Of a DNA stretch of 64,000 nucleotides, positions 12,487-15,315 are shown piece after piece. The DNA comes from Candidatus Micrarchaeia archaeon (GTDB lineage: Archaea; Micrarchaeota; Micrarchaeia; Norongarragalinales; Norongarragalinaceae): positions 13,793 to 77,792 of the forward strand of contig JBAZPG010000004.1 of the NCBI GenBank assembly GCA_041648335.1, given 5' to 3'. How positions within the stretch are numbered: position 1 is the first letter of the stretch; every line of letters begins with the position of its first letter. The translations under genes were made by a program, and so were the position numbers. The notes under the pieces are model-generated. The model did not search any database. It was not told the origin of the DNA and worked only from the letters and a program-made list of their open reading frames with translations.

Positions 12487-15315
12487 CTAACCCTTGATTA
12501 CGCCCATGGGCACGAGCCTCGCAACGATTCCGCAGAGTCCCGCGCGCTCCACCGCACCCACCACGTCGTCAACTTTCTTGTAGGCGCCGCCCGCCTCCTC
12601 GGCGAGCACGCCCGTTTCCACCGCACGCACGACAACACCGCGCGCCTCCATGCCCCGCTGTATTTCGATGCCGCTGTAATCGCGTAACGCCTGCGAACGG
12701 CTCTTCACGCGCCCGCTCCCGTGGCAAGTCGAACCCCAAGACTCCGCCGCGCCCGGTAAACCCTTTAGCACGTATGAAGCCGTTTCCATGCTCCCCGGAA
12801 TAATCACCGGCTGCCCTACCGCGCGGTAAGCCGCGGGAACCTCGGGGCGTCCCGCCCAGAACGCGCGCGTCGCACCCTTCCGGTGAACGCACAATTTTTT
12901 GCCGTTGTGTTCCTCGATTTTCGCGATGTTGTGGCACACGTCGTAAACGAGCGACAAGTCCATTGATTCCCAATCGCGCTTGAATACCTTCGCGAACGCC
13001 TCGCGCGTCCAGTGCGTCATCGCCTGGCGGTTCGCGAACGCGTAGTTCACCCCGCACGCCATCGCGCCGAGATAGTCGGACGCCTCCGGCGACGAGAGCG
13101 GCGCACAACACAACTCCTTGTCCGCGAGCTTGATTCCGTATTTTTCGCTCGCGCCCAGCATCACGCGGATGTAATCGTCACACACTTGATGTCCGAAACC
13201 GCGGGAGCCCGAGTGAATCGCAACGCACACCTGTCCCTCGCGCAAGCCGAACGCCTTCGCGGCTTCAACGTCGAACACTTTCTCAACGCGCTGGATTTCG
13301 AGGAAGTGGTTCCCGCTCCCGAGCGTGCCGAGCTGGGGGCGGCCGCGCTTGCGCGCCATCGCGCTCACCTTGGAGTAATCCGCGCCCCCCATTGCCCCGC
13401 CTTCCTCGCAGTGCTCCGCGTCCGCGGCTACGCCGTAGCCCTCGTCAAGCGCCCACTTCACGCCGCGTGTGACCGCCTCGCCGAGTTCGTCGTCGTCCTT
13501 GAGGCGGATGCGCCCCTTCGAGCCAACGCCCGACGGTATTCCCTCGAATAATGCGTCCACGAGTTCGCGGGCGCGCTGCTTCACCTCGCTTGCCTCGAGG
13601 TTGGTGCGCAGGAGGCGGATTCCGCAGTTGGACACTATCAATCCGTTGGCTACGAAGTTGTGGTTGTCTTCCACGGTGAAGTCGTAAACTTTTTCGATTC
13701 CTGCGGGTTCGATGGCTTCTATTTCATCCAGTATGCCGCCGTGTACTTTGATTTCCTTTGTTTTTTCTGTTGTGAACGCTTCAAAGGACGCGAAGCCGAG
13801 GTCCAGCCTCGTTCCAGTTTTCTCGTAAACGCTGCGTTGAACGAATCGCTTGTTGTAACCCAACTCGCGGGCTATTTCGTTAATCGTCAAGCCCTTTTCC
13901 TTGAGCTCCCTTGCTTTTTCGCGCGCCTGCTTTCTTTCAGTAGTGTGCCCGCGTTTCAACGCGATGTAGGCGCAGGCGATTTCCGCGGCGTTGGAGCGCT
14001 TCTCGTTGTATTCGAAGCCGATTTTCCTCCAAAGTTTTTCCAGGTTTTTTTCTTCGGCGGAGATTTCGAGCCGTAAGCGCACGGTTTCGCCTTTTTGGTT
14101 TGGTTGTTCGCTTCGTTCGGCGATTTTCGTGGTTTCAACCTCGAAATCTTCCTTCAACAGCCGCATTATTTGTATCAGGAACGCCCGACCAGATTGCTTG
14201 GCTACCGTGTTCTTGTTTTGTGCGAGTATGGGCGCGTTGAATCCGGTTTTGCAATGCGTTTTCGGCGTGGTTAGCTCGGCGCCGAAAAACCCAGCCAAGA
14301 ACAGGCGTTTCACCCATTTGGGTGCGTTCAACACCCAGTTCGGGACGCCATATTCCGCGATGGTTTTCCTTCCCAAAGGTAAACCGAGTTCCACGAGTTT
14401 CTCGCAGAACCCGCGGGAGTAAATGTGGAGTTCGCCGCAATTGGAAACGAATGTCTTGTCCCCGTATTGCGTCCTGATTTTGCCGACGCGCGTGCGCTCG
14501 AAAACGCTGCTCTTCACGCCGATTGACGCCAAGTCGCATTGCATTCTTTCCAAGTCGTTCTTGTTTCCGAACGCCTCCACACGGATTTTTCCACCTGTTT
14601 TAGAAGCACTGCCGTCGCCAAGCAGATAGCCGATAACCTTCGCGAGGACTCCCGTCGCCTCCTCCGAGAAGCCCTCGAGGTTGAACGGTTCATCGTATTC
14701 CACTCCTTCAAAGTACCTAACCGCAACCCGTTCTCCCTTGGTTAAATCGGCGAGCGGAGTCATCCCGCATTCTGTCAGGAACGGATGGTCTGCGCTGGCT
14801 TTAACCGAGAAACCCGAGTGCGTCTTTAACCCGTAAACCGCCGCGCTCTTGTGCATGAACGCGATTATTTGTTTGGGTTCGAAGCTTTTGTGCGCGTTTA
14901 GCGTTTGAAGCGAGCCACCTAACAGCATCGTCCTACCCGCATCCTCGCATTCAACGGGTTCGAACGAGGCTATTTTTTTCCAGTAACCTAGGTTCGACTC
15001 TATCCTAGCGTCACCCGAAAGGCAATTTATGTCATACCCCACTCCGCCAGGCGACACTATGCCCTCGTCGAAGTTGAAGGCAGCCACGCCGCCGATGGGG
15101 AAACCGTTTAAGGCCGTTGAAAACTTTTTTCAACAGTATCCTTCGTGCCCATCAGGCATGACCATGGCTTTGCCTTCCAAGCCGGGAAGCGAGGCGACGT
15201 TGTTTATTTGGCTTAACGTCCTATCCCGCTGCATTTGCGCGAACATCTCGTCGCTCGCGTAAACACGCACCCTGCCTTCTTCGAAGACGCAGTCCCGCGT
15301 TTTCTTGAAATCCAT
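12487..15315 (-). CDS. rtcB: RNA-splicing ligase RtcB, interrupted by a LAGLIDADG intein and by an in-frame 30-nt insertion carrying a TGA
   Basis: The N-terminal 61 aa (ORF 15130..15315, ATG at 15315) match the RtcB N-terminus (..[23 protein letters not shown]). The downstream ORF continues in frame with [27 protein letters not shown], followed by the intein and a 379-aa C-extein (CGIRLLRTN...GSGNHFLE...HRKGATRA...CHGSGR...VIKG) that aligns along its whole length with Pyrococcus RtcB. Confidence 0.85.
13627..15024 (-). mobile_element. intein (466 aa) with a LAGLIDADG homing-endonuclease domain, inserted at the Cys of the RtcB DINCG motif
   Basis: Begins CLSGDARI (block A), contains LAGLIDADG motifs IGYLLGDGS and FLAGFFGAEL, and ends ..GLIVSN followed by the +1 Cys of CGIRLL. 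Removing it restores [14 protein letters not shown]. Confidence 0.8.
15106..15135 (-). other. 30-nt in-frame insertion in rtcB (mRNA sense UGUUGAAAAAAGUUUUCAACGGCCUUAAAC) containing a UGA codon and an 8-bp/3-nt-loop hairpin
   Basis: It separates ..MPDGHEGY from [10 protein letters not shown].., which are contiguous in canonical RtcB. The sequence GUUGAAAA-AAG-UUUUCAAC is a perfect hairpin, and a 2-nt AC repeat at both junctions leaves the exact boundary ambiguous by 2 nt. Confidence 0.7.

Follow-up and report, generated by a model that had tools for sequence, protein, structure and literature searches.

The question raised by this locus is how a cell can make an RNA ligase from a gene whose reading frame is interrupted. 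The gene is rtcB, and it lies on the minus strand of a 64,000-nt stretch of DNA from a Candidatus Micrarchaeia archaeon (GenBank assembly GCA_041648335.1, contig JBAZPG010000004.1, positions 13,793 to 77,792). This whole stretch is referred to here as the window, and coordinates are those of the window unless a related locus is named. Read in the mRNA sense, the RtcB frame is broken after ...MPDGHEGY by 30 nt that carry an in-frame UGA. We assign a probability of roughly 0.9 to the prediction, made from the sequence and its relatives, that these 30 nt (15137..15108, minus strand) are an archaeal intron of the bulge-helix-bulge (BHB) type, located inside the coding region of rtcB in a DPANN host. 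The original prediction, made from the letters of the window, had listed a mini-intron removed by the splicing endonuclease as one of three options, next to a recent hairpin insertion that pseudogenised or split the gene and an assembly artefact. The first option is strongly supported by a canonical BHB fold, by exact restoration of the frame, and by homologous introns with covariation.

The interrupted rtcB gene

All features of rtcB described here are on the minus strand. The mRNA reads AUG GUC AUG CCU GAU GGG CAC GAA GGA UAC UGU UGA on entering the interruption and GCC UUA AAC GGU UUC CCC AUC GGC GGC on leaving it, the intervening letters being contained in the predicted intron, ACUGUUGAAAAAAGUUUUCAACGGCCUUAA. 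The open reading frame (ORF) listing contains an upstream ORF of 61 aa (15315..15130), which ends with ...MPDGHEGYC before the stop, and a downstream ORF of 866 aa with a GTG start (15087..12487). The break, the 61-aa N-fragment and the GTG-initiated remainder are thus exactly as first described. At NCBI the N-fragment is labelled 'hypothetical protein WC607_02070 [Candidatus Micrarchaeia archaeon]'. The 30-nt string occurs only once in the window at up to three mismatches, with a chance expectation of 0. No group I or group II catalytic core was found in the insert, which is only 30 nt long, and the Rfam matches in the window are three tRNAs only.

When the 30 nt and an intein (described below) are removed in silico, an RtcB of 466 aa results. 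This spliced product covers profile positions 1-426 of 426 in PF01139 (E 1.8e-169), and aligns with P. horikoshii RtcB (PDB 1uc2/4dwq) with an E value of 3.4e-165, without gaps over residues 17-130, a range that includes the junction. The residues on either side of the insert are contiguous in canonical RtcB, as had been claimed. From the ORFs and tblastn, exon 1 is placed at 15138..15315, comprising codons 1-59 and the first base (U15138) of the Tyr60 codon. It is followed by the predicted intron with its in-frame UGA (15108..15137), excision of which would give GGAU-ACGG and hence Gly-Tyr-Gly, and by the N-extein part of exon 2 (15025..15107, by tblastn), which runs from the last two bases of the Tyr60 codon through Asn87. 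The C-extein (CGIRLL...VIKG) with its stop codon occupies 12487..13626, as indicated by ORFs, Pfam, alignment and tblastn.

The simplest doubt is that the insert is an error of sequencing or assembly, or that it is translated, with the UGA read through to add a peptide of 10 aa. The insert does keep the frame and contains only one stop. The identical sequence is found in an ENA assembly (L081), on a contig of 533 kb, and again in a Logan assembly made independently from another run, SRR8449827 (L082); together with the relatives described below, this excludes an artefact. Ordinary genes in the window terminate at normal stops and there is no sign of UGA recoding, while the homologous inserts in relatives include lengths that are not multiples of 3 and could not be translated in frame. 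We regard the probability of an artefact or of read-through as practically negligible.

A second doubt is that rtcB has been inactivated or split by insertion of a hairpin, such that no RNA is spliced and each of the two ORFs is either translated by itself or left untranslated. This is how the gene is treated by gene callers and by NCBI, which annotate two ORFs. Both exons are intact, with all RtcB motifs, and no second copy of rtcB was found in the window by tblastn of the spliced extein. A downstream protein starting at the GTG would lose GFPIGGV. A Shine-Dalgarno-like GGAGG (15322..15326) can be read in the sequence 6 nt upstream of the rtcB ATG (15315..15313), and nothing comparable is seen before the GTG at 15087, which fits a single spliced message better than two translated halves.

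Predicted fold and splice sites

The original prediction described a perfect 8-bp hairpin with a 3-nt loop, and held that no clean canonical BHB could be drawn by eye. The hairpin does exist, with a stem that extends to 10 bp (CUGUUGAAAA paired with UUUUCAACGG, including one G.U pair) and an AAG loop. The BHB can also be drawn: the unconstrained minimum free energy (MFE) fold of 15060-15180 is itself a canonical hBHBh' motif (z = -3.2), and the pair table agrees with it base for base. The layout is 5'-CG AAGG [AUA] CUGUUGAAAA-aag-UUUUCAACGG CCUU [AAA] CG-3', that is, a 2-bp outer helix, a 3-nt bulge, a 4-bp helix, a second 3-nt bulge and the 10-bp hairpin.

In this fold, the central helix pairs AAGG of exon 1 (15140..15143, codons Glu58 and Gly59) with CCUU at the 3' end of the intron (15110..15113). 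It is flanked by the AUA bulge of the 5' splice site (15137..15139) and the AAA bulge of the 3' splice site (15107..15109). The inner helix h' (15114..15136) is the 10-bp stem, in which 15136-15127 pairs with 15114-15123 around the AAG loop at 15126-15124. The outer helix h is formed by C15145 and G15144 (15144..15145), which pair respectively with G15105 and C15106 of exon 2 (15105..15106). Beyond an internal loop, h continues into a 15-bp extended exon-exon helix between 15148..15162 (codons V-M-P-D-G) and 15083..15099 (codons P-I-G-G-V-A), so that there is a flanking helix on each side of the motif. The rtcB motif has the same orientation as in archaeal pre-tRNAs, whose central helix is likewise built from 5'-exon bases and the intron (PMC4090602).

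Cuts were placed between the second and third residues of each bulge, a rule that was taken from PMC2738675 and PMC4090602. Introns in tRNAs were sought in order to calibrate the rule, and no tRNAs at all were present in the 26 related loci. The predicted cuts are between U15138 and A15137 and between A15108 and A15107. They remove 15137..15108, which is exactly 30 nt, and join CAC GAA GGA U to AC GGU UUC to give HEGYGF. A 2-nt AC repeat had been noted at the ends of the insert. This is real, and means that the boundaries first proposed (15135..15106) and those given by the BHB rule are equivalent in sequence. The Boltzmann probability of the complete BHB core is 0.61 for the variant in the window, compared to a median of about 1e-10 when the intron is shuffled.

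Predicted introns at the same site in relatives

The original prediction proposed a search for the same insertion in related genomes. Relatives were found by scanning genome and metagenome collections and by looking up truncated N-terminal ORFs. Ten distinct interruptions are present at the same codon position in rtcB genes of the Micrarchaeota type, with lengths of 17, 21, 27, 30, 32, 32, 32, 33, 36 and 49 nt. The search thus returned homologous introns of 17-49 nt at the identical position, with the covariation described below. Because six of the ten are not divisible by 3, insertion of a peptide is impossible for those six variants. The hairpin sequences are unrelated between variants, yet there is a hairpin in each.

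In all ten variants, cuts made by the BHB rule give GG(A/U)U-ACGG and restore both the frame and the motif, and only those cuts do so. The rule was already in place when four of the variants were found, and all four obey it. The central helix is fully paired, as a strict core, in nine of the ten, with one being relaxed. For three variants (L005, L088 and L174), the unspliced reading gives Phe, and splicing brings back the conserved Tyr.

An alignment of the ten sequences has 96.3% of its cells paired, compared to 32-55% in structures slid along it; the outer helix is 100% paired and the central helix 97.5%. Central pair 2 occurs as A-U, G.U and G-C, where the change in the exon is a synonymous one from GAA to GAG. 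There are 13 compensatory cells, compared to 4.3+/-1.5 in shuffles (0/500 reach 13), and the covariation score is 0.185, compared to 0.090 in shuffles (0/500), although these shuffle figures are not probabilities, because the variants share ancestry. The slide control keeps this relatedness, and is as clear as the shuffle result.

These data bear directly on the idea of a split gene. The nucleotide position is kept in lineages whose RtcB proteins are just 60-72% identical, frame-shifting lengths (17, 32, 49 and others) are all repaired by precise BHB excision, and the BHB is kept by covariation even though the hairpins have nothing in common in sequence. Together with the intact exons and the lack of a start signal at the GTG, this contradicts a recent pseudogenising hairpin, and we consider an inactivated or split gene to be very unlikely.

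They also bear on a translational explanation, namely programmed bypassing of the type seen in T4 gene 60, with take-off at the Tyr codon and landing before GGU. As in gene 60, there is a stable hairpin and a nearby stop following a conserved codon. Here the UGA does not directly follow the take-off codon but lies two codons downstream, and the take-off and landing codons differ (UAC and AAC in the window, UUC and AAC in L005), which goes against the defining test of such a mechanism. The gap varies from 17 to 49 nt across homologues, and bypassing would give L005, L088 and L174 a Phe in place of the conserved Tyr. It also leaves unexplained both the two 3-nt bulges and the covarying 4-bp helix between exon and intron. 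Bypassing is thus highly improbable, and removal of the insert as a BHB intron is the reading that is followed in the rest of this paper.

A second BHB-like intron site and an intein

A second interruption of rtcB, of 30-38 nt, is located between GVGY and DINCG, three codons 5' of the site occupied by the intein. It was traced from short RtcB N-fragments on long contigs, which end in ...SPGGVGY, and removal of the insert gives GVGYDINCG. Examples are L163:3262-3297 and L088:390-422. The interruption is carried by eight other lineages of the Micrarchaeota clade (L163, L165, L167, L168, L169, L170, L173 and L088), and in two of these (L088 and L173) both introns are found in one gene, 27 codons apart.

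The folds at the second site are BHB-like, with 3-nt bulges at the predicted cuts, an intron hairpin, and a 5-bp outer helix shifted out of register by a single unpaired base. The central helix takes the form GGUU/GACC, GGUU/GACU or GGCU/GGUC, and a change from U-A to C-G in it is compensatory. In L165, L169 and L173 it contains a G.A, and these are therefore relaxed motifs. An alignment of six sequences has 94.4% of its cells paired, compared to 29-54% when slid, and a covariation score of 0.539, compared to 0.286 in shuffles (0/500).

All loci were screened for insertions elsewhere in RtcB, and those that contain a stop or break the frame were found only at positions 60 and 84. The remaining differences in length are ordinary differences in N-terminal loops. 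Two further breaks were considered and rejected. In L169 a third ORF break (L169:3400-3415) was examined as a possible third intron, and is an in-frame TAA between KSP and AQDY, where relatives have GAA. It is either a sequencing error or a sign that this copy is truly decaying; in the latter case it would favour the split-gene explanation to the extent that some copies may be decaying. In L141, which has an otherwise intact and intron-less rtcB, the break at L141:1491-1513 is due not to an insertion but to a frameshift close to the C-terminus, where HSPs in two frames overlap; it is probably an assembly indel.

The intein of the window gene (13627..15024, by tblastn) has 466 aa (CLSGDARIE...NGLIVSN) and contains a LAGLIDADG homing endonuclease. 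It lies immediately before the Cys of DIN-C-G, 27 codons past the intron. It matches Intein_splicing (5e-14) and LAGLIDADG_3 (2.8e-5), and has the hallmarks of an N-terminal Cys and a C-terminal Asn followed by Cys+1 (CLSGD...LIVSN, then CGIRLL). Inteins are known from other RtcB proteins, an example being that of P. horikoshii PH1602. They are selfish elements situated at the catalytic Cys of GYDIN-C-G, are found in many relatives as well as in the window gene, and differ from the rtcB intron in being removed at the level of the protein. As judged from its sequence, the window gene would need both an RNA splice and a protein splice to give active RtcB. The intein and the intron are independent of each other, because the intein is present and the intron absent in L083, with the reverse in L003. 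L008 has an intron at the first site together with a mini-intein of about 143 aa, and many relatives have neither element.

By alignment to 1uc2, the first intron site splits the codon matching P. horikoshii Tyr70, the second separates the equivalents of Tyr94 and Asp95, and the equivalent of Cys98 comes directly after the intein. We take Asp95 and Cys98 of P. horikoshii RtcB to be metal ligands.

A side observation concerns the same catalytic Cys in bacteria. In 74 bacterial loci among L016-L162 (e.g., L016, L017, L022 and L023), which have rtcB of the Deltaproteobacteria/Desulfobacterota type, a TGA is found at the Cys of GYDIN-C-GVR. The ORFs are otherwise intact (VGYDIN, stop, GVRLMR), and the TGA is followed by hairpin-prone sequence. 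From their sequences these look like selenocysteine-containing RtcB proteins.

Empty sites and flanking exons

The closest relative of the window gene is L083, which is 78-88% identical and has the same intein, with an uninterrupted GGATACGGA junction. In RtcB trees, genes with and without the intron are mixed together in a single Micrarchaeota clade. A similar pattern in cbf5 has been explained by an early gain, with precise losses recurring later. By analogy with crenarchaeal cbf5, the rtcB intron is most likely a tolerated and near-neutral element, which has been inherited and repeatedly lost.

The long exon-exon helix (codons of VMPDG against those of PIGGVA) was considered as independent support for the intron, and rejected as such, since conserved codons already account for pairing at 10-11 of the 15 positions in genes that lack the intron. 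Only the excess in carriers counts, because the conserved codons provide this baseline. Carriers pair at a mean of 14.2/15 positions, compared to 11.3/15 in 18 intron-less Micrarchaeota (carriers higher, Mann-Whitney p = 0.001). The higher pairing is reached by synonymous choices, such as GAU...AUC and GGG...CCC, and one pair in which both partners are wobble positions is seen as A-U, C-G and G-C. The synonymous sites of the flanking exons are thus tuned for pairing in carriers, and this is again not what a split gene would lead one to expect.

Weighing the intron assignment

Several observations weigh against an intron. A loose BHB pattern is common by chance: a scan of the window for 2+4+3 bp gave about 1,400 matches per strand over 110 lengths in this GC-rich sequence, a rate of about 2e-4 per position-and-length combination. 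The motif is therefore not evidence on its own, and by itself it proves nothing. The outer helix next to the 3' bulge has just 2 bp before the internal loop. The ten variants at the first site share ancestry and are not independent trials. The central helix of L173, L165 and L169 contains an A.A or G.A, there is a 1x3 loop at the second site, and the ensemble probability is low (0.01-0.04) for L091 and L088. Among the approximately 55 Pfam-annotated ORFs of the 64-kb window, neither the tRNA-splicing endonuclease EndA nor archease is present, and the enzymes are therefore assumed from knowledge of the lineage. Finally, when the spliced N-terminus was compared to 5.8 billion proteins, no contiguous product of at least 90% identity from the lineage was found, which would also be expected if the gene were split.

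The evidence for the intron is instead that the BHB falls on the one combination of position and length that repairs the conserved motif, and that it does so again in relatives. A scan for a BHB combined with fusion of ORFs gave 141 candidates in the window, of which rtcB alone has support from homology. Scans of the whole window are thus uninformative on introns in other mRNAs.

Proposed mechanism

The products of EndA carry 2',3'-cyclic phosphate and 5'-OH ends, which are joined by 3'-5' ligation (PMC3400036), and Micrarchaeota have an EndA of the epsilon2 type, with a broad substrate range (PMC3488258, PMC6379350, PMC12397907). We infer that cleavage by EndA and ligation by RtcB take place in vivo as follows. 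The pre-mRNA would fold such that AAGG of exon 1 pairs with CCUU at the 3' end of the intron to form the 4-bp central helix, flanked by the bulges AUA and AAA, the 10-bp intron hairpin and the exon-exon helix. EndA would cut after the second base of each bulge, so that exon 1 would end in a 2',3'-cyclic phosphate and exon 2 would begin with a 5'-OH. RtcB, which is the product of the same gene, would then join the exons to give HEGYGF, and probably also circularise the 30-nt intron. Translation of the spliced message would give a precursor that excises its 466-aa intein to become the active ligase, and an unspliced message would yield only the 61-aa peptide.

As the interrupted gene encodes the ligase, the mRNA for the ligase would itself need the ligase, and new RtcB could presumably be made only if EndA and some RtcB were already present. 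Any regulatory consequence is a matter for speculation. One idea is a self-referential feedback, in which synthesis of the ligase is tied to splicing capacity through competition with pre-tRNAs, with the intein as a second gate. Another is that rtcB is a preferred landing site, through reverse splicing by the nascent ligase, an idea which comes from the presence of two intron sites and an intein within 30 codons of the active site. Both are speculative, and we consider them unlikely.

Comparison with known systems

The closest known system is the intron in the cbf5 pre-mRNA of Crenarchaeota (Desulfurococcales and Sulfolobales) (Watanabe 2002; Yoshinari 2006; Yokobori 2009; PMC2738675), and by this analogy the mechanism proposed for rtcB would be the same. 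Both are short introns in an archaeal protein-coding gene, with a BHB or BHB-like motif cut between the second and third bulge residues, and in each case the split codon belongs to the catalytic-centre region of an enzyme of RNA processing. Both are tied to an EndA of broad specificity, and have a patchy distribution that points to precise loss in particular lineages. They differ in several respects. The host gene encodes an RNA ligase rather than a pseudouridine synthase, and the lineage is DPANN/Micrarchaeota with an epsilon2 EndA. The motif in the window is strictly canonical hBHBh', whereas most cbf5 introns are 'unconventional'. There are two intron sites in rtcB, sometimes both in one gene, as well as an intein, and the product of rtcB is itself the ligase needed for the splice. 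Splicing of cbf5 is supported by cDNA, whereas that of rtcB is predicted from sequence. What is distinctive about rtcB is thus that the host gene is the ligase itself, that there are two sites, that an intein co-occurs, and that the host is a DPANN archaeon.

The introns of archaeal tRNAs and rRNAs have the same motif, and presumably the same enzymes and end chemistry. Archaeal tRNA introns are 11-129 nt long, and mostly 12-25 nt (PMC4090602), so the sizes seen in rtcB are within the range. The rtcB substrate differs in being an mRNA, which has no tRNA body, and in that the exon strands of the motif are also under coding constraint. The intron of HVO_1309 in Haloferax volcanii (Schwarz et al., 2020; PMC7714728) is likewise in an mRNA that is a substrate of an archaeal EndA with a BHB, but it is located in the 5' UTR and interrupts no reading frame. 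There is also a likeness to the unconventional splicing of HAC1/XBP1 in the cytoplasm of eukaryotes, where a short intron in a coding mRNA is removed independently of the spliceosome by a protein endonuclease acting at stem-loops, with joining by a tRNA ligase. In that system, Ire1 cuts and either Trl1 or, in metazoa, RtcB ligates, and splicing alters the frame and the product. It differs from rtcB in using Ire1 rather than EndA, in having two 7-nt loops rather than a BHB, in being regulated by stress, and in that the target is a transcription factor and not a ligase.

According to a 2020 study, cbf5 was the only other mRNA reported to have a BHB intron besides the 5'-UTR case described there, and the only example in a coding region (PMC7714728). 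For introns in protein-coding genes, the cbf5 work is still the only one cited in a 2025 paper on the ARMAN-2 endonuclease. No published rtcB intron was found in the literature searched, which leaves out most subscription journals, so this absence is not proof. Archaeal protein-coding genes have introns of the tRNA-splicing type only extremely rarely. If the assignment is correct, rtcB would be the second gene family to have one, and the first in the DPANN superphylum. It would also be the first case in which the intron falls in a gene for a component of the splicing machinery, such that expression of a ligase depends logically on a pre-existing ligase. With its two sites, neighbouring intein and tuned exons, rtcB is a compact system in which to follow the gain, maintenance and precise loss of introns. 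There is also a practical consequence. In the output of gene callers and at NCBI, rtcB is given as two pieces, a 'hypothetical protein' and an RtcB that is truncated or marked 'partial', and inferences about metabolism and genome completeness in Micrarchaeota may wrongly score this essential gene as broken or absent.

Other features of the window and related loci

In both the window and the distantly related L163, rtcB is adjoined by a 300-aa protein whose only match is to EF-Tu domain 2, with a SpoIIM-family membrane protein nearby. By Pfam, these two neighbours are at 15407..16309 and 16834..17643 (minus strand) in the window, and at L163:1-190 and L163:4757-5716. The arrangement suggests conserved synteny. 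Pairs of HEPN and nucleotidyltransferase genes are found directly upstream of rtcB in two carriers of the second-site intron (L165:1302-1963 and L167:1938-2916).

Elsewhere in the window, an ORF of 1122 aa without a Pfam match (2548..5916, minus strand) abuts the ORF of an ATP-dependent DNA ligase (820..2547, minus strand), with no spacer. An 85-nt tRNA at 25427..25511 (minus strand) is called as Asp(GTC), and has a normal cloverleaf with the anticodon loop CUGUCGA. Its variable region contains a 13-nt insertion with a 5-bp stem-loop, and its D-arm and A73 look like those of Leu or Ser tRNAs. Two readings fit: a tRNA of class-II shape that has an Asp anticodon, or a tRNA-Asp in which a small intron occupies a non-canonical position.

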